From positions 181,040,001 through 181,104,000 of the forward strand of contig OZ024742.1 of assembly GCA_964016885.1 (NCBI GenBank): 64,000 nt of DNA, given 5' to 3'. The stretch's first letter is position 1. Every line of letters starts with the position of its first letter. The stretch is from Eledone cirrhosa. Lineage: Eukaryota. The notes below the pieces were generated by a model, which did no database searches, was not told the DNA's origin, and saw only the letters and a list, made by a program, of their open reading frames with translations. A program made the translations under genes and the position numbers. Positions 10,987-25,118 of this stretch are shown here, one piece after another.

Positions 10987-11852
10987 ATCATCATCATCAT
11001 CATCATCATCAACGTTTAACGTCCGTGTTCCACGCTTGCATGGGTTTGGACGGGGGTTTTCCCACTTGAGGCAAGAGTGATTGTCTTGCTCGCATAGGAC
11101 TGTCTGGCGGGTTTTCTACAGCTGGATGCCCTTCCTAACACCAATCACATTTACAGTGTGGGTCTGGGAGGTTTTTACCGTGTTGCCTACACGGCCACAT
11201 TACAGCGTGGACTGTGTGTTTTTTTTTGTCGTGACACCTACACAATCTCATTTGTTTCGGCCTGGATGTTGTGGCACCAACATAACTTTACATTGAAAGG
11301 GGCGGTGTGGATGGGGTGGGGTGGTGGGACGGGGTGTATTTTGTTAGAGATGCCTACTGACTGTAGTAGGTTTTACTTTGTATTTAGGTAACGCGGGTCT
11401 TCTCTATTACTGAGTACCGCCAAAGGTCTCGGTCCAGTGACATTGTCTTAGAGAGGTGTAAGTGTGTGAGGTTGGAATTTATCAGCTCGTCCCAGGTTTT
11501 TCTGGGTCTGCCTACTCCGTAGCTACCGTCTATCTTTATTGCCCTGCACTTTGTTATCCAGCTGTCTTCTTTCATGCGCATCACGTGACCATACCAACGT
11601 AGCCTTCTCTCAAGTAAACAACATCTGATCCCTCTTATTTCTAATTTTTTCCGTAGTTCGCTTATGCTTTGCCGTTCACGTATGTTACTATTACACATCC
11701 AGCGGAGCATGCAAGCTTCGTTCCTCTCTGGTCTGCGTATATCCTCTGCACACAATGCCCAGGTCTCACTGCCATGCAACATTGCTGTTCGTATGCAGGC
11801 ATCATACAACCTGCCTTTCCTTTTTAGGGAGAACCCTTTAGTGGCTAATAGT

Positions 11853-11853
<1 letters not shown>
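10987..11853 (-). mobile_element. Young 5'-truncated RTE LINE (RT C-terminus, 3' UTR, (GAT)n tail)
   Basis: [20 protein letters not shown]...[12 protein letters not shown]...GRPRKTW. Highly similar to the copies at 16801 and 21897. Confidence 0.92.
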
Positions 11854-11892
<39 letters not shown>

Positions 11893-12176
11893 ATATATAT
11901 ATATACAATATATATATATATACAATATATATATATATATATACATATATATACAATATATATATATATACAATATATATATATATATATACGATATATA
12001 TATATATATATATACACATATATATATATATATATATATTATAATTGTAGCTCTGAAATAGCAATATATATATGGATGTAAATATAATGTATTTTGCAAT
12101 ACACTTTATGCTTAATTAAAAGCATTTTGAAGACCGTAAGCTATTGTTTTAAAGTAGTGACAAATTCACTCACTTC

Positions 12177-12270
12177 GATCTCAGCAAACAGGAGGAGATA
12201 AGCCGACATGACATGTTTCGCTTTTGTTGAAGCTTATCAAGGCCAACTACCCCGCCCGTCTGCTGAGATC
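12177..12270 (-). ncRNA. Type I hammerhead ribozyme, U3-A8 core, inverted copy
   Basis: Reverse complement of 12538-12631. Confidence 0.8.
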
Positions 12271-12537
12271 AATGATGTTATATTCTTATAGAAATCTAGT
12301 AAATAATCAGGAGCTGATTATGCAGAGCGGTTGTTGGTCAGGCAGAAATTAAAAATTAGAATTGTAGCTCTTAAATAGCAATATATATATGGATGTAAAT
12401 ACATTATATTTACATCCATATATATATTGCTATTTCAGAGCTACAATTCTAATTTTTAATTTCTGCCTGACCAACAACCGCTCTGCATAATCAGCTCCTG
12501 ATTATTTACTAGATTTCTATAAGAATATAACATCATT

Positions 12538-12631
12538 GATCTCAGCAGACGGGCGGGGTAGTTGGCCTTGATAAGCTTCAACAAAAGCGAAACATGTCAT
12601 GTCGGCTTATCTCCTCCTGTTTGCTGAGATC
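12538..12631 (+). ncRNA. Type I hammerhead ribozyme, U3-A8 core, with extended stem I
   Basis: GGCC-TTGATAA-GCTT caacaa AAGC-GAA-ACAT gtc ATGT-C-GGCT; cleavage after GUC at 12603. Enclosed by GATCTCAGCAGACGG/CTGTTTGCTGAGATC. Confidence 0.82.
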
Positions 12632-12854
12632 GAAGTGAGTGAATTTGTCACTACTTTAAAACAATAGCTTACGGTCTTCAAAATACTTTTAATTAAGCAT
12701 AAAGTGTATTGCAAAATACATTATATTTACATCCATATATATATTGCCATTTCAGAGCTACAATTCTAATTTTTAATTTCTGCCTGACCAACAACCGCTC
12801 TGCATAATCAGCTCCTGATTATTTACTAGATTTCTATAAGAATATAACATCATT

Positions 12855-12945
12855 GATCTCAGCAGACGGGCGGGGTAGTTGGCCTTGATAAGCTTCAACA
12901 AAAGCGAAACATGTCATGTCGGCTTATCTCCTGTTTGCTGAGATC
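12855..12945 (+). ncRNA. Type I hammerhead ribozyme, second tandem copy
   Basis: Same core as 12538-12631; cleavage after 12920; 3-bp deletion in the outer stem. Confidence 0.82.
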
Positions 12946-13047
12946 GAAGTGAGTGAATTTGTCACTACTTTAAAACAATAGCTTACGGTCTTCAAAATGC
13001 TTTTAATTAAGCATAAAGTGTATTGCAAAATACATTATATTTACATC

Positions 13048-13140
<93 letters not shown>

Positions 13141-13184
13141 ATATATATATATATATACAATATATATATATATATATATACAAT

Positions 13185-15395
13185 ATTATATGAGTGGATC
13201 TTGTCGAAACGCCACAACGAGAACATCGACACTAACGAACAGACGGACCAGAATCACGTGGAAAACAACAACTTAACAACCGCCACCGCCGCAACCACCA
13301 ACACCGAGCCATACCTCAACGATGCGGCGCACCTGGTCACCGACCTAACCGGCACTCTCACGAGCGACGAGCTGAAACTCCTACACCTCGGACCTAAGTT
13401 CATCGTCACACAACGTCTCGACGACAGACTCAATCTCAACATCGAGGCCAACTTTTGTCGAGCCGCTTACCAACTTAAATGGATGACCGCTGTCAACAGC
13501 GCCACAGATAATAACAGCACCAACACAACCCACCCCAAGTTCCCCACTTACCACCCCGACAACCCATTCCACCCCCCACCCACCAACCACGAACTCGACA
13601 CTAAACTCATCAGGCTAAAACACTCCATCTCGGATATACTTAACAAACACACACACACACGCACAACACATAACCTCACCAAATCTCAACTCGCCACTCT
13701 CTCCAACCTAAAATCGAAGAACCTCATCTATCTCCCCTCCGACAAGGGAAAAGAATTCTGCGTCATCAGCAGAGAGGCCTACAACATCCTGGCCCTCCAA
13801 CACCTTGACGATGACAACCTCTACTCCAAGGTCACGGGAATCACTCCCGCGCAGATAGAAGAACACATCAACTCCGCCTGGACCAACATCTGCGACCGGC
13901 GGAAGCTCCCGAAGAAGCTGAGATACAACCTCCTCACGAGGAACAGCAGACTACCCGCCTTCTACCACCTCGTGAAAACACACAAACAGGGACCCGACCT
14001 GAAAATCAGGCCCATCGTATCGAGCGTGGAGGGACCACTCTACAAAATTTCATGGCTCCTAGCCAAAATACTCAAACCCATCTTAGACACCTTGCCGGGA
14101 CACGTTAACAGCTCCGAGGAGGTTTTGAAGCGTCTGCATCAAATGGATCCCGACACCAGAAGGAATAACAGATATGCCTTCAGCCTTGATGTAGTCGCTC
14201 TCTACACCTCGGTCCCAGCACTCCCGGCCGTCAATATACTGATGGAACGCGTCCAATCCACCGACCTACACTGCTTCGGGCTCACCACCACTGACATCCA
14301 CCAACTCCTATCCATCGTCGTCGACAACACCTACTTCGGATTCCTTGACCAAATATACCAACAAACCTCGGGATTGCCCATGGGATCAAGTCTATCAGGT
14401 GTGCTAGCGATCTCCTACATGGACAACCTCGAACGCAAGGCACTCAACGCCTGCCACCCCAACGCCGTAGCCTTTTTCTCAAGATACGTGGACGATATCC
14501 TCATCCTCACATCTTCCCAATACACGGCGAACAGAATCTATGACACGTTCAACAACACGGACGAGAACAATGACTTCAGTGTTGAACACCCCAACGAAGA
14601 CGGGTCACTTGCCCTCCTCGTCTTCCGAATCAACATCACGGAACAAGGAGGGATCCACTGCAACTTCTACAGAAAGGCAGCCTGCAGGGACCTGTTCGTT
14701 CACTACAAGTCCGCCATCCCTAACAGTGCCAAAAGAGGATACATCACGAACGAATCGCGCGAATCAAAAACAGATGCAGCGATCCCGCGAGTGGTGTCAC
14801 TCATACCAAGCGATTCCTCGAGGTGCTGGAGACGAACGGGTACCCTACCTCGATCACAGACAGAATAGGAGACACCAGACGCAAGAGACAGAGAATCACC
14901 CAAGGCAAGTGCTTCCTTAAAATGCCACACCTGGGCGAGAAAACCACCAACGCTATCCGCAAGGCTATACGGGGGTAGGGCCTCGACATCCACCTGGCCC
15001 ACTCAGGCCCCTCCCTGCGAAGATGCCTCTCCAGGAAACCCGAAAAATCTACTGACGCATGCTCCCTCAGAGACTGCCCGATACGCCATGCTAACTGTTG
15101 CCTACGCACATACGTCGTGTATAAGATAGAATGTGACAGGTGCAACCAATACTACATAGGTAGCACAATTCGACCTTTGCACATCCGGATCAAGGAACAC
15201 ACTAAAACCAGGGCCTCGTCTTTCCGGAAACACATAGACAAATGCGGAAACAAAGACGGAAGGCCCATTGTCACAATTCTAGCGACTGAAAGAAACGTCG
15301 GCACGTTACGTATCAAGGAAGCGCTTTTTATCAAACGACTGCAACCGCAAATAAACAACCGATCAGAGAGAAGCGAAATGAAATGGCTGGTTTAA
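13185..15395 (+). pseudogene. PLE RT/GIY-YIG ORF with one frameshift (~14753) and one in-frame TAG (14976-14978)
   Basis: After KRGYITNE the PLE-like frame shifts to IARIKNRCSD...FLEVLETNGYP...AIRG*GLDIHLAHSG...CSLRDCPIRHANCC...VVYKIEC. The listed 623-aa ORF start is an artefact of the TA tract. Confidence 0.88.
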
Positions 15396-15756
15396 GTTAA
15401 CAAGCGATGCAACAACACACAACACACGCACACGCAAATGAGACAACTACACACACACACGCACACACACACAGTAGCATTCCAGCATACGAACATACTA
15501 CACTGCCAATACAGATGAACAAGGCAACAACACACACACACACACACTCAAGCGAGACAACAACACACGCACACACACACACAGTAACATTTAACAAACA
15601 GGCAGAGAATGGACTGACAGCTAGCGCCATCCCACTCCCTCATTCGGCCGCTGACCTCTGTACGACCGACCCCATTTCACGCGCACGCGCGCTCGGCCGA
15701 ATACCTCAGATATTCAAATCAACAAACAGCGAAAGACGCGTTCCGAGTTGTCCGGC

Positions 15757-16086
15757 AGGCAACCTTTTCCCCCACCCCGGAGGAAAACCCCAGTTGATGG
15801 ATGTGAATCCGAAATATATAGGGACTATTAAATCTCTCCCAAGGTAACTCTCTCTTGTGTTGTTATTTTTATTTTTATCCTTTATACTCTTCCCTTCATT
15901 CTACACATCTCACACATGTTATACACACCACGCATCTCAACGTACACCAACTTACATCTCTCTCTCCACCACCGGACCTTGTTACCCGGAGATTTACCCA
16001 TTTGCATTGTCGAGGCTTCAAAACGACCGAAAGATATTTACTTATTGTTCCACAATGCTTCAAGCAAACTTCAATACTCTCTTAAC

Positions 16087-16130
<44 letters not shown>

Positions 16131-16462
16131 TTTAAGAGAGTATTGAAGTTTGCTTGAAGCATTGTGGAACAATAAGTAAATATCTTTCGGTCGTTTGGAA
16201 GCGTCGACAATGCAAATGGGTAAATCTCCGGGTAACAAGGTCCGGTGGTGGAGAGAGAGATGTAAGTTGGTGTACGTTGAGATGCGTGGTGTGTATAACA
16301 TGTGTGAGATGTGTAGAATGAAGGGAAGAGTATAAAGGATAAAAATAAAAATAACAACACAAGAGAGAGTTACCTTGGGAGAGATTTAATAGTCCCTATA
16401 TATTTCGGATTCACATCCATCAACTGGGGTTTTCCTCCGGGGTGGGGGAAAAGGTTGCCTGC
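15757..16462. repeat. Long palindrome: PLE1 pseudo-LTR and its inverted copy around a (TA)n spacer
   Basis: 15757-16092 and 16125-16462 are reverse complements with only a few mismatches. Confidence 0.95.
15788..15823 (+). ncRNA. Minimal hammerhead-like motif with non-canonical core CAGUUGA
   Basis: CCC-CAGTTGA-t-GGAT gtga ATCC-GAAA-TATA-TA-GGG. An identical inverted copy lies at 16394-16429. Confidence 0.55.
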
Positions 16463-16563
16463 CGTCGTGTATAAGATAGAATATATATATATACCTAGGA
16501 TATATATATATATACATACAATATATATATATATATATATACATAGGATATATATATATACAT

Positions 16564-16800: not shown

Positions 16801-18321
16801 ATCATCATCATCATCATCATCATCAGGTTTAGCGTCCGTGTTCCACGCTTGCATGGGTTTGGACGGGGGTTTTCCCACTTGAGGCAAGAGTGGTTGTCTT
16901 GCTCGCATAGGACTGTCTGGCGGGTTTTCTACAGTTGGATCCCTTCCTAACACCAACCACATTTACAGTGTGGGGCTGGGAGGTTTTTACCGTGTTGCCT
17001 ACACGGCCACATTACAGCGTGGACTGTCTGGCGGGTTTTCTACAGCTGGATGCCCTTCCTAACACCAACCACATTTACAGTGTGGGGCTGGGAGGTTTTT
17101 ACCGTGTTGCCTACACGGCCACATTTACAGCGTGGACTGTGTGTTTTTTGTCGTGACACCTACACGATCTCATTTGTTTTGGCCTGGATGTTGTGGGACC
17201 AACATAACTGTACATTGAAAGGGGCGGTGTGGATGGGGTGGAGGTGGTGGGACGGGGGGGTGTTTTGATAGAGATGCCTACTGACTGTAGTAGGTTTTTA
17301 CTTTGTATTTAGGTAAGGCGGGTCTTCTCTATTACTGAGTACCGCCAAAGGTCTCGGTCCAGTGACATTGTCTTGGAGAGGTGTAAGCGTGTGAGGTCGC
17401 AATTTATCAGCTCGTCCCATGTTTTTCTGGGTCTGCCTACTCCGTGGCTACCGTCTATCTTTATTGCCCTGCACTTTGTTATACAGCTGTCGTCTTTCAT
17501 GCGCATCACGTGACCGTACCAACGTAGCCTTCTCTCGAGTAAACAACATCTGATCCCTCTTATTTCTAATTTTTTCCTTAGTTCGTTTATGCTTTGCCGT
17601 TCACGTATATTACTATTGCACATCCAGCGGAGCATGCAAGCTTCGTTCCTCTCTAGTCTGCGTATATCCTCTGCACACAATGCCCAGGTCTCACTGCCAT
17701 GCAGCATTGCTGTTCGTATGCAGGCATCGTATAACCTGCCTTTCATTTTTAGGGAGAACCCTCTAGCGGCTAATAGTGGTATAAGCTCTCTGAACTTTTT
17801 CCATCCAGTTCTGACTCTAGCTACTGTACTTTCAGAGCACCCTCCCCCACTGCTGATTTTGTCACCCAGGTAACGGAAGCTGTCCACTATTTCTATAGAA
17901 CCCTCTGCGCAGTTGAAGGAGCTAGTACTTTGTGGGCACTTGCTGCTACTTATTGCACCAGAGCACCGGCCACATGTAAAATCTATGTTCTTAGTTAGCT
18001 TACCTGTGATCCCACTACATCTTTTATGCACCCATACTTTGCATTTGGGACATAAAATGGAGTTTCTACCTACGCCTTTCCTACACACTGAGCATGGCCA
18101 TTTCCCAGATGGGACTGCCGCCATATTTTCTTTCCTACAAACTAGAACTTTAGTCTTAGCCAGGTTAATTTTAAGGCCTTTTGATTCTAGGCCGTGCTTC
18201 CATGTTTGGAATTTCTTCTCTAGTTCGGTCATTGATTCAGCTATGAGCATTAGATCATCTGCGTATAGGAGTTCCCATGGGCAGCCAGTCTTAAACTCCT
18301 CTGTTATAGCCTGAAGGGCAA
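16801..18321 (-). mobile_element. Young 5'-truncated RTE LINE with an open RT C-terminal half
   Basis: [19 protein letters not shown], a Cys-rich finger, [30 protein letters not shown]; (GAT)n tail; internal duplication in the 3' UTR. Confidence 0.95.
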
Positions 18322-19630: not shown

Positions 19631-21650
19631 GTATACAATGTTGCTAGACTTATCCTCCTGTCCTCCACTCCTATTAGCACTACGCACAACCCACTCCATC
19701 CATACCTCTTCCTGTTCTTGTCCCTTAGCTGTTGCCCACGACCTCTAAAGCCCCTAGATACCCCCACTATCACATCCTAGGAGCTACTCTACTCATGACA
19801 ATGCATTTAACCCATGCCCCCTCCACTATAATCTGTTAGCTATTCTCTCCAGCACTACATCTCTACCTGGCAATGCCACCTTCACACTAGAGCTCATGAT
19901 CAAACCTTCCACCCTCTCCACCCCCACCACTTCAGTTTTCTCACAGTCCCATCCCCTTCCCCACTCATCACCCTATCAAATTCCGCCACATTTGCCATAA
20001 GTTCATAATTATCTCTCTCCTACAACCCCCCCCCCCCCCCACACACACACAGATTAGAAATGGCTTTTCTGTTGGACATGGACCAGCCCAGCACAGTCTG
20101 TAAGATGTCACAGTGGGACAACCTTTCTAGTGTTGGTGATCTACCTGCTAAATGCACCCAGTACATGCTCTAAAGCAATTAGTGATAGGAAAGGCATCAA
20201 GCTGTAGAAAGCTTGCCAAACAAAGGATTGGGAAGACCCTTCATTCATGTCAAGGACATGACAGCCTCTCTAGTATTGGTGATCTACATGATAAACACAC
20301 CCAGTATTTAATGTAAAGAGGTTTGTGATAGGAAGAGCATCCAGCTGTTGAAATCTAGCCAAACAAAGAGCTGTGAGGACCCTCAGTTGTGTCAAAGTCA
20401 TGACAGCTTCTCCTATGCTCTTGAAAGAACATGAGACTATACATAAGCAAGATGCAGACTCCCTGGCCCATCCTGGAGGTCAGTAGCACTGCTTCAGTAA
20501 TGACTTGGTCTATGTAGACCTGTCCAGCCCTTGTTAGCATGGAAAGCAAATAATAAAAGATGATGATGATGACAATGAAATGTACTTACATAAAATTATG
20601 ATGGAACATTTAAAATAAACATAAAGGCTTTAAAGCAAATGACTTTGTGCCATATAACCCAGCGCAGTACCAGGTGTTTTAGTATGAAAAGGGTTAATTC
20701 AAGATATGGAGCCCAGCTCTCTGAAAGTGTGAACACAGTTGACTTCTTACAGTGAGATGGAAGAGAGAGAAACTGATATATAGGAAGAAATGATCCCACC
20801 ACCGGAATTGTCCGTAAAAGGATGAAAGGCAAAGTTTACCCAGGTGAGATTTGAATTCAAAATGCAGTGAGTTTGAACAAACACATTGAAGTATTCTCTC
20901 TAATAACTTTGCCAATGAGGAAGATAGCCATCTACAAGAAAGAGATTTATTTATTAGAAATGAAAAATTAATTATAAGAACTGAATTAGCATTGCTTCAG
21001 GCAATGATTTCAATAATCATTCTTAATCTGTTCTTTCTTATATTCTTTAACTGGTTTCAGCCATTAAGCTGCATCCAAGCTACAGCACTGCCTTTATGTA
21101 ATTGATCATATTTTTCCAAGTCTGATGCTTATTTTATCAATCTTTATTTTGTTGAACTGCTGAGTTTTAGAACATAAATAAATACATTGCTCATATTTAA
21201 TGAAAATATGTTGACCAAGTGACACAAATTTTCTGAAATATATTCCACAGCAACATAATCAACAAAGTATTTGTTATTCTTCAACAAGAAATGTATCAAA
21301 AGAATCATCAAGAACATCAGTATATAAACGAGTTATTAAATTGATTTATAGATTGATGAAACTAGTTTTGTATTAAATAAGGTAGCTTTACATTCGAATA
21401 GAACATCACTAGCTGATTGCATTTATGATAAACTAAAAAGTTTATATCTTGCATTGATTCTTTGGAGCTCTGCTGTGTATAGAAATAAAAGAAAAATAAC
21501 ACAAATATAAAAGAATATGTAGTTTATCAATTACAGTCACTGGGGCAATTATATGTGTCTGCATGTGATTACAGTTGTTAAACCATAATATGATGTGTAT
21601 GTATGTGTGTTTTGTATGTTCTCTGCATGTGTGAGTGTGTGTGTGTACAT

Positions 21651-21681
<31 letters not shown>

Positions 21682-21722
21682 CACATATATATATATATAT
21701 ACGTACACATATATATATATAT

Positions 21723-21850
<128 letters not shown>

Positions 21851-21896
21851 GTACACACATATATATATATACGTACATATATATATATATATATAT

Positions 21897-22714
21897 ATGC
21901 CTGCATACGAACAGCAATGTTGCATGGCAGTGAGACCTGGGCATTGTGTGCAGAGGATATACGCAGACTAGAGAGAAACGAAGCTTGCATGCTCTGCTGG
22001 ATGTGTAATAGTAATATACGCGAACGGCAAAGCATAAACAAACTAAGGGGAAAATTAGAAATAAGAGGGATCAGATGTTGTTTAGTCGAGAGAAGGCTAC
22101 GTTGGTATGGTCACGTTATGCACATGAAAGACGACAGCTGTATAAAAAAGTGCAGGGCAATAAAGATAGACGGTAGCCACGGAGTAGGCAGACCCAGAAA
22201 AACCTGGGACGACCTGATAAATTCCGACCTAACACACTTACACCTCTCCAAGACAATGTCACTGGACCGAGACCTTTGGCGGTACTCAGTAATAGAGAAG
22301 ACCCGCCTTACCTAAATACAAAGTAAAACCTACTACAGTCAGTAGGCATCTCTAACAAAATACACCCCCGTCCCACCACCCCCACCCCATCCGCACCGCC
22401 CCTTTCAATGTAAAGTTATGTTGGTGCCACAACATCCAGGCCGAAACAAATGAGATCGTGTAGGTGTCACGACAAAAAAAAACACACAGTCCATGCTGTA
22501 ATGTGGCCGTGTAGGCAACACGGTAAAAACCTCCCAGTCCCACACTGTAAACATGGTTGGTGTTAGGAAGGGCATCCAGCTGTAGAAAACCCGCCAGACA
22601 GTCCTATGCGAGCAAGACAACTACTCTTGCCTCAAGTGGGAAAACTCCTGTCGAAACCCATGCAAGCGTGGAACATGGACGTTAAGCGATGATGATGATG
22701 ATGATGATGATGAT
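21897..22714 (+). mobile_element. Young 5'-truncated RTE LINE
   Basis: [25 protein letters not shown]...SVIEKTRLT, 3' UTR and (GAT)n tail; (TA)n on both sides. Confidence 0.93.
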
Positions 22715-23614: not shown

Positions 23615-23702
23615 TTTCGTTTCTGAATTTGTTTAGCAAGATTCTTTATCTGAAATCGTGTGTTGAAACCGATATTGTTATACTTTGGGAGGGCCATGTT
23701 GC

Positions 23703-24584
23703 AAACATCTGATCCACCGAAACTCGGCCATTTCGGACCATACCAAAATCAACATACTGATTGCGGATTTGGTACGGGTGATGAGAAATGTGTCCCGCAT
23801 GTGCAACCCCGAAGAACTAGAGAGACACATACAACACTTCATCCACCGTATGCAGTTCTCTGGCTACAATCAGAGAGATAGAATCAGAGTGTATAAAGGA
23901 GCCAGAACCAAATGGGAAAAAATGGTAAATAATGACATAAATGGGACCTGCCCCTTGTATAGGAGCAAATTTTGGAATAGAATAGAAAGAACTAAGAACA
24001 AGGCCAATAGAATAAACTCATGGTATGATAGCAATAAATACCAGAGTGTAATGTTCATCAATACAACCCCTAGAGGCGAACTAGCCTACAAATTTAGAAG
24101 GGCCCTAAAGAAACATAATCTCAATATTAAGATAGTAGAAAGACCTGGTACCTCCGTAAAAACACTTATTAGCAAGACATACCCGTTCCAAAGACCCTCA
24201 TGTATAGATAAGAAATGTATAACCTGTAAAATAAGCCCCCATATTAACTGTAAAACTAGAAATGTAGTATATAGCATAAGATGTACTGAAGGACAATGTA
24301 GAAACAAAAATATAGTGTACATAGGTGAGACAGCTCGTAGTATAGGGGAACGAATAAATGAACACTGGCGAGACCTCCAAGATAATAAAGAATCATCTGT
24401 GCTCTACCAACATGCTAAGATAGAACACAGGGGTAAATTAGAGAGCATAGAAATAAAAATAGAATCCACACACAAGAAAGACGCAATGTTTAGGCAAATT
24501 ACAGAGGCAGTAAGCATAAAAGAATTAAAACCAAAATTAAATAGAAAATATGAGTGGAACAGCAACATCACAACTTACAATTAA
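23703..24584 (+). CDS. PLE2 RT thumb, Zn-finger linker and GIY-YIG endonuclease (partial, no native start)
   Basis: Uninterrupted frame with VVY...YIGET..R..EH GIY-YIG motifs. Confidence 0.85.
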   Translation, partial: KHLIHRNSAISDHTKINILIADLVRVMRNVSRMCNPEELERHIQHFIHRMQFSGYNQRDRIRVYKGARTKWEKMVNNDINGTCPLYRSKFWNRIERTKNKANRINSWYDSNKYQSVMFINTTPRGELAYKFRRALKKHNLNIKIVERPGTSVKTLISKTYPFQRPSCIDKKCITCKISPHINCKTRNVVYSIRCTEGQCRNKNIVYIGETARSIGERINEHWRDLQDNKESSVLYQHAKIEHRGKLESIEIKIESTHKKDAMFRQITEAVSIKELKPKLNRKYEWNSNITTYN

Positions 24585-24867
24585 GGACAAAATGAAAACA
24601 CACACACACATAGAACAAACAACTTACAATTGAAAACACACACAAAATGAAAACACACACACGCATAGAACAAACAACCAACCAACAATAAATAAATAAA
24701 TAAACAAACAAATAGAAAAATATAAATAGAAAAATAGAAAAATGAACACAAACACACACAGACACCCGGATGTGGCGCATGCGCAAACGGAGCACGCAAC
24801 CCACACACAAACAAAATGGCGTAGGATAGAAGAAAGGAAAGGCACAGAAACGAAGAAAGAAATCCCC

Positions 24868-24912
24868 AGTCACTGAAGAGGTCACAGTGTGTGTGACGAA
24901 AGAACTATGACT
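24868..24912 (+). ncRNA. Minimal type I hammerhead ribozyme in the PLE2 pseudo-LTR
   Basis: AGTCA-CTGAAGA-g-GTCACA gtgtg TGTGAC-GAAA-gaac-TA-TGACT. Confidence 0.85.
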
Positions 24913-25063
24913 ATATATATATAAACAACTATCTGGTTGTGGAACCAACCAACCAACCAGAAATTTATAAATTTGTAAATTTATAAATATATAATAAATT
25001 AAATTGAAGTGAAAGCAACTGGTGCGTGTGTTTCTTATTGGCAACATGGCCCTCCCAAAGTAT

Positions 25064-25118
<55 letters not shown>

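Follow-up and report, generated by a model that had tools for sequence, protein, structure and literature searches.

Two-armed insertions of a 317-nt hammerhead retrozyme in Eledone cirrhosa suggest mobilisation by a Penelope-like element

The window analysed here, a 64,000-nt stretch of Eledone cirrhosa DNA (assembly GCA_964016885.1, contig OZ024742.1, positions 181,040,001 to 181,104,000), contains one copy of a young, 317-base, non-coding hammerhead repeat family sited in a (TA)n microsatellite. By its sequence features the element is a non-LTR retrozyme, and on the best reading of its insertions it behaves as a non-autonomous EN+ Penelope-like element (PLE). That PLEs mobilise this retrozyme we regard as highly probable. 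The fuller account that we favour on balance is that a PLE RT/GIY-YIG protein writes the retrozyme in trans, priming on both strands of (TA)n and likely rolling along a 317-nt RNA circle.

Organisation of the window element

The element spans 12038 to 13048, plus an (AT) run common to element and flank, and comprises an inverted and a direct arm joined head to head. Its features and neighbours are given below in window coordinates, with L and S denoting long and short 3' ends.

11855-12037, no strand: (TA)n target microsatellite, left flank, read from the sequence
12038-12401, minus: inverted arm of 1.2 units (~370 nt) with its own hammerhead; 3' end long (L), at monomer position 167
12038-12063, minus: 26-nt tail (monomer 142-167) past the internal (AT)5 at 12064-12073
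12182-12259, minus: type I hammerhead of the inverted arm, predicted cut after 12205
12397-12411, no strand: head-to-head junction, a 15-nt imperfect palindrome with an exact 5-nt overlap at 12397-12401
12397-13058, plus: direct arm of 2.1 units (662 nt); 3' end short (S), with 13048 the last specific base and (AT) common to the target thereafter
12538-12631, plus: hammerhead 1 on a long stem (12538-12551 with 12618-12631), predicted cut after 12603
12564-12567, 12568-12574 and 12575-12588, plus: stem I, U3-A8 core and stem II of hammerhead 1
12592-12602, plus: near-palindromic stem III of hammerhead 1
12604-12920, plus: cut-to-cut monomer of 317 nt, the predicted excised and circularised RNA
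12855-12945, plus: hammerhead 2, core 12885-12891, predicted cut after 12920, 3-nt deletion near 12928
13049-13187, no strand: (TA)n target microsatellite, right flank
13188-16090, plus: PLE1, inserted separately into the same TA run, 5'-truncated, frameshifted near 14760, with RT and GIY-YIG

An earlier note on this DNA had proposed a retrozyme with tandem GUC cleavage sites 317 nt apart, preceded by an inverted copy. Both features hold: the triplets end at 12603 and 12920 on the plus strand, with a third ending at 12205 on the minus strand, and the arms on either side of the switch at ~12401 (12033-12401 and 12407-12775) are 98% complementary. The head-to-tail units are near-identical as described, apart from a few substitutions and a 3-nt deletion. 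ATG ORFs reach at most 28 aa in a family monomer treated as circular, in keeping with the claimed lack of an ORF; PLE ORF matches lie outside the arrays (38 loci of 10 kb). The long stem carrying the hammerhead is present in the predicted fold (z -5.0 for the hairpin and -3.7 for the monomer relative to shuffles). The reported dissimilarity to the PLE1 pseudo-LTR also stands, with only TA low-complexity sequence shared among the matches listed. Rfam miRNA matches at 12364-12444 correspond to the palindromic junction and all fall below the gathering score.

Truncated, RT-coding LINE fragments on the minus strand, which we take to be RTE-like, lie at 11000-11858, 16810-18290 and 21440-22300, bounded by (TA)n and (ATC)n. 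A TA run between two of them received both the retrozyme and the PLE1 insertions.

A young family with several sister families

A 29-nt core of the element has 549 exact matches across the 3.0-Gb genome, compared with 0 for a control. Scoring 40 of 1345 candidates yielded 255 matches on many contigs, the full-length ones being 98-100% identical. The units are tandem, 317 nt long, non-coding, dispersed, equipped with a type I hammerhead and 35% in GC, which agrees with the earlier identification as a retrozyme. The plant LTR retrozyme, with its type III hammerhead in LTRs and 4-bp TSD, is ruled out by the type I hammerhead, the tandem units and the TA flanks.

Subfamily A1 diverges from a reference copy by 0.22% (125 of 57060 bases, L043 omitted) and subfamily A2 by 0.8%, markers being excluded in both. 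The insertion had been called very young, and the youth is borne out; however, with ~6 differences in 1 kb against 0.22% for its subfamily, the window copy is not among the youngest. Sister families B and C have copies ~95% and ~94% alike, respectively, and the 310-nt units of sister family D are mostly 98-100% alike; further variants also exist. At L031, L040, L043, L045, L052 and L158 we observed more hammerheads with a palindromic CUAG stem III, some at ~460-470-nt spacing, which probably represent additional retrozyme families.

Hammerhead ribozyme

Rfam Hammerhead_HH9 matches the element at 12549-12626, 12867-12943 and, on the minus strand, 12182-12259, with E values of 6e-4 to 8e-4 and scores of ~31 bits against a gathering score of 52. 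The catalytic core reads UUGAUAA, a U3-A8 variant, rather than CUGAUGA, and is accompanied by the G10.1-C11.1 pair, GUC, GAAA and three stems of a type I hammerhead. Over the core region, 162 of 170 copies (some from overlapping loci) are identical. Across the sister families, in 12 natural copies, 96.6% of alignment cells pair, and the 3-8 pair is U-A in 8 copies and C-G in 4. Changes on both sides occur in 16 of 26 pairs, including C3-G8 to U3-A8, a level reached by 0 of 500 shuffles. As these 12 sequences are related and hand-picked, and the structure was derived from one of them, we treat the covariation as support and not as a probability. It supports a functional ribozyme that appears to be under selection, consistent with the RNA-level selection previously suggested from the stem.

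Stem III is self-complementary in all families seen, with a predicted self-duplex of -11.9 kcal/mol in the window family, suggesting that cleavage may occur as a dimer. The active fold is calculated to lie above the predicted minimum by 5.3 kcal/mol in the window subfamily, 2.9 in B and 0.5 in C, tertiary contacts excluded, a gap that would speak against easy cleavage. Family D differs in both its hammerhead and its long stem, and keeps ~74% identity at monomer 70-214, around the ends; this retained region is likely the one recognised by protein. Small palindromic, TA-flanked insertions with a hammerhead near that of family D occur at L279 (9727-9800), L271 (near 8000) and L162 (near 5400), and are possibly minimal two-arm PLE derivatives resembling MITEs.

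Insertions pair one short and one long end

We mapped 67 loci, 39 from the best-scoring matches and 28 from the ordered core-match list; removal of one duplicate (L180, of L179) left 66. The second copy in L041 was left out, and the satellite L200-L201 was handled separately. Two arms meet head to head in 52 loci, while 13 have one arm and one has three pieces, so the PLE-style inverted arm noted in the window recurs in 52 of 66 insertions.

The 3' outer ends fall at two places. In 59 of 117 arms the end is at position 141, the end of the internal (AT)5 (short), and in 54 of 117 it is at 166-175 (long), 24-34 nt past the (AT)5 or 34-44 nt from its start. The two are paired within insertions: 46 of the 52 two-arm loci carry one short and one long end, one has two short, one two long, and four have an odd end or a gap end (mixed ends in 46/48, p 4e-12). 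The tail is accordingly one-sided in 46/52, and TA opens 110 of the 116 outer flanks that could be read. When 37 loci on two contigs were taken irrespective of score, 27 proved to be short/long pairs, two had an odd end, seven had one arm and one had three pieces, with neither two short nor two long ends in any. The same pairing occurs in every two-arm locus with both canonical ends in family B (6), C (6) and D (5), from 19, 20 and 13 loci; the remaining 35 of those 52 are one-armed, multi-piece, odd-ended or incompletely covered, and one three-piece C locus has two short ends. Exceptions to the rule in the main set are L035, with two long ends at a palindromic site centre, L057, with two short ends, and L032, whose arms represent two haplotypes. 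The genome-wide search thus yielded something other than the variably permuted ends that had been envisaged: outer ends are fixed, and the inner junction alone varies.

The template of the arms

Rolling reverse transcription of a circular RNA had been the earlier explanation of the array, and at the level of sequence this part is favoured by seamless joints, passage through the cut site and variants fixed across units and arms. Among 245 crossings of the cleavage site we found 0 indels and 1 substitution, and only 7 of 117 inner ends lie within 10 nt of the cut, against 7.4 expected. Indel-free crossings and the lack of inner-end enrichment at the cut make a cut linear monomer an unlikely template. 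Counted per locus, and with positions 128-142 and 165-176 omitted, the unit variants comprise 77 fixed ones that every covering unit carries, 14 mixed ones and 178 singletons. Of the fixed variants, five are private, each occurring at a single sampled locus, and three of these are present on both arms; at the five loci the private variant is carried by 3-7 of 3-7 units. Such fixation favours a bottleneck to a monomer followed by re-amplification. The arms, which reach 13 units and 4132 nt, also agree with each other: at marker 252 they are concordant in 39 of 39 loci, where 14.9 discordant loci would be expected, and at six other markers there is at most one exception each. Arm concordance could also stem from one active source at a time, and L032, with discordant arms and hence two templates, counts against a circle, as does the failure of eight of nine Xenopus retrozyme dimers to cleave in vitro (bioRxiv 10.64898/2026.07.22.740005). 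Taken together, we consider a circular template fairly likely.

The strongest competitor retains the both-strand PLE priming argued for below, with an uncleaved linear multimer transcribed from homogeneous arrays as template and the hammerhead serving another step. Seamless joints and the lack of a stop at the cut fit it equally well, the disfavoured active fold is in its favour, and so is the use of unprocessed RNA by the PAc protein, as described in the available text of PMC11167929. At L036 and L186, moreover, a unit-specific variant is present on both arms, which is what a multimeric template would produce. However, a linear donor can neither lengthen arrays nor fix a new variant in all units, whereas the private variants are fixed at five loci and arms extend to 13 units; mixed variants, which number just 14 against 77 fixed, also weigh against it. 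We therefore hold this alternative to be rather unlikely and prefer the circle.

Priming at both strands

Inner ends are evenly spread round the monomer (KS p 0.23). In 20 of 52 loci the arms overlap by at least 4 nt at the junction, where 2.3% would be expected by chance, and inserted bases replace the overlap in nine of 52; overlaps were taken from BLAST ends, and the longest contain mismatches. The lengths of the two arms are uncorrelated (rho 0.03). Independent arm lengths and two distinct, fixed 3' ends indicate two priming events, and priming on both strands is, in our assessment, likely. They give no support to the one-off 5' inversion of a single cDNA that had been suggested for the window copy.

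Close to that suggestion is a scheme in which one cDNA folds back and primes itself, its copy becoming the inverted arm, similar to the self-priming model discussed in PMC3846280. The window locus by itself would fit such a fold-back, its junction lying in a 15-nt imperfect palindrome at which both arms stop at the same position; across loci, 31 of 46 fit one direction, and arm concordance would follow naturally. An arm copied from the other must, however, fit inside it, and 15 of 46 loci fit neither way, as many as with shuffled arms (12.7 +/- 2.6), so that fold-back appears to fail as a general rule. Moreover, a common stop position for both arms is confined to 2 of 46 loci, and the longer arm is the short-ended one in 27 loci and the long-ended one in 19. 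Fold-back is hence improbable as the source of the inverted arms, and two primings are preferred.

Array growth and assembly

Tandem units might instead have arisen in DNA, by unequal crossover or slippage after a single insertion per locus of a monomer derived from a pseudo-LTR; a satellite model is discussed in bioRxiv 10.64898/2026.07.22.740005. Growth of this kind does occur. The array at L200-L201, longer than 17 kb, begins with a normal long end and an inverted arm and continues as a mosaic of higher-order 304- and 316-nt units, and L157 and L160 are long divergent arrays; we read these three as retrozyme arrays that have become satellites, with sizes from several kb to >17 kb. In ordinary arrays, however, unit variants are singletons and not common to units (178 singletons and 7 mixed on one arm), and both arms are tandem with their short and long ends intact, which leaves this explanation very improbable for them and returns us to reverse transcription as their origin. 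An assembly artefact of a palindrome within TA repeats has a negligible chance of explaining the window array, even though no read or contig in the four runs examined (one recorded as DNA, three of unrecorded kind) spans it and N gaps adjoin two loci, since units differ specifically, the junction differs per locus, four families share one end rule and all four independent runs hold pieces of the family.

Relationship to Penelope-like elements

The hallmarks of EN+ PLEs are present in the retrozyme: the inverted 5'-truncated arm (52/66), the one-sided tail (46/52) and the TA flanks (110/116). The geometry of two distinct ends in (TA)n recurs in autonomous PLEs of the same genome. PLE1, for example, ends at 16026-16045 or at 16084, with a tail in which its own ORF begins. 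This tail (~40-50 nt) is longer than that of the retrozyme, and PLE1 has no canonical hammerhead. Its RT copies are 97.9% alike, and the family is very large and young, with 14997 candidates; aa identity is 94-100% in the 150 scored, and open frames of 850-920 codons are present in some copies. PLE1 is excluded as parent on sequence, having nothing in common with the retrozyme bar TA low-complexity among the matches listed, and is possible as a helper in trans.

We searched for a partner with the Pfam GIY-YIG profile, inspecting 30 loci, 20 long-ORF loci and 20 pLTR loci. Among these 30 + 40 GIY-YIG/pLTR loci, from 150 scored of 10597 candidates, no alignable pLTR of an autonomous PLE was found. 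One PLE family resembles the retrozyme at the level of motifs only, with a U3-A8 hammerhead, a similar stem II, an internal (AT)7-8 and a 30-40-nt tail; its copies are 92-95% alike and thus older than subfamily A.

Several further PLE features were observed in the window. The PLE1 pseudo-LTR carries a hammerhead-like motif at 15788-15823, mirrored near 16395-16430, with a 5' core unlike CUGANGA, a 4-bp stem II, GAAA, a palindromic TA stem III and a CCC/GGG stem I. The motif is near-invariant in ~40 matches among the loci sampled and may be a novel core variant or a decayed ribozyme. At 15753-16482 two PLE1 ends stand tail to tail in one (TA)n, and the other arm of the second insertion is 20 nt of the endonuclease-coding region (matching 15113-15132) that runs into TA with no normal end. 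A second 5'-truncated PLE family, at 23616-25070, has a short inverted arm with a ~59-nt tail, TA flanks and a canonical-core hammerhead in its 3' repeat. The region of 55545 holds a PLE pseudo-LTR fragment with a U3-A8 hammerhead, from a long-ORF family whose copies are 97-99% identical.

Proposed mechanism

In the mechanism we favour, arrays would be transcribed, and the hammerhead would cut the transcript at GUC, probably as dimers formed through the self-complementary stem III. The monomer would then be ligated, as shown for other retrozymes. A PLE protein would cut both strands of (TA)n and start cDNA at (AU)5 for the short end and 24-34 nt downstream for the long end, with one start site per strand; the ends are seen in the DNA, and the priming is what we infer from them. 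Each RT would travel an independent distance of up to 13 units and through the cleavage site, as the arms record, after which the cDNA 3' ends would join, often by the short inverted microhomology found at the junctions. In some arrays, later expansion of the DNA would produce mosaic satellites, as observed at one locus.

More tentatively, with the odds a little against so specific a picture, the arrays may preserve, like fossils, the workings of the Penelope reaction: an RT/endonuclease dimer takes one circle, starts one cDNA at the (AU)5 site on one target strand and another ~30 nt away on the opposite strand, rolls on both and joins the two ends. If so, a single mechanism would account for three features of all EN+ PLEs, namely inverted pLTR, one-sided tail and tandem copies, and the 317-nt circle would be a complete cis-acting substrate. 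In the parts of the literature available to us, the mobilising enzyme of animal retrozymes and the origin of PLE inverted repeats and tails are open questions; the first would here be answered by anatomy and not by co-occurrence. Any PLE mechanism now has a counted rule to account for, namely one short and one long end, independent arm lengths and common variants. The minimal 317-nt RNA suits an in vitro comparison of circular and linear templates, and natural C3-G8/U3-A8 hammerhead pairs are available inside one lineage.

Comparison with known systems

Metazoan non-LTR retrozymes, described in mussel, coral and axolotl, are built of tandem units of 150-450 nt that carry one type I hammerhead apiece, lack an ORF and have GC below 50%; a self-paired RNA is predicted for them and PLEs were proposed as their mobilisers (Cervera & de la Pena 2020, PMC7229834). 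The window family shares the tandem units, type I hammerhead, missing ORF, low GC and predicted self-pairing. The published elements are head-to-tail with occasional TSDs, which the (TA)n targets would hide in ours, and the available text of that report is without the inverted arms, fixed ends, tail and (TA)n targeting that the window family has. Ours differs further in its U3-A8 core and in circles that are predicted only.

EN+ PLEs have an inverted pLTR and a 30-40-bp tail on one side (PMC8557442, PMC3846280). Like them, the window family has a head-to-head 5'-truncated copy, a tail at one end, AT-rich or microsatellite targets, a hammerhead in the repeat and, by our reading, two internal RT start sites; unlike them, it has no ORF and its entire unit is 317 nt. 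The non-coding PLE derivatives of green algae, the Chlamys elements such as MRC1, also form multicopy head-to-tail insertions (PMC8557442). Their 3' ends are similar to those of their autonomous partners, and the N-terminal-EN PLEs covered in the available text of that paper are without canonical hammerheads. Schistosoma Cercyon PLEs carry minimal U3-A8 hammerheads with the same core covariation and palindromic stem III (PMC4209133), whereas the window core sits on a full stem III with a long stem I extension, in tandem arrays.

Xenopus retrozymes have been presented as non-autonomous PLE derivatives on the basis of co-occurrence and pLTR homology, and one of nine of their dimers cleaved in vitro (bioRxiv 10.64898/2026.07.22.740005). 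We reach the same conclusion on the mobiliser from insertion anatomy, pLTR homology not having been found among the sampled loci. In the preprint text available, 'tail' is absent and 'inverted' appears in one reference title only. Two-arm retrozyme insertions with short and long ends were not described in the literature searched, subscription papers and supplements being places where a description may exist.

A biochemical parallel is the purified Poseidon protein (PAc), a predicted dimer that cuts and extends both strands in vitro, uses mainly unprocessed RNA and starts RT at two internal sites bounding the tail (PMC11167929). As far as the accessible text goes, its start site showed no strand difference and no homology to the cut DNA, whereas each insertion here pairs one short and one long end and the short site is an (AT)5 that matches the target. 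The class of element is already known, and it is the short/long pairing within single insertions, new within the literature searched, that these loci add.
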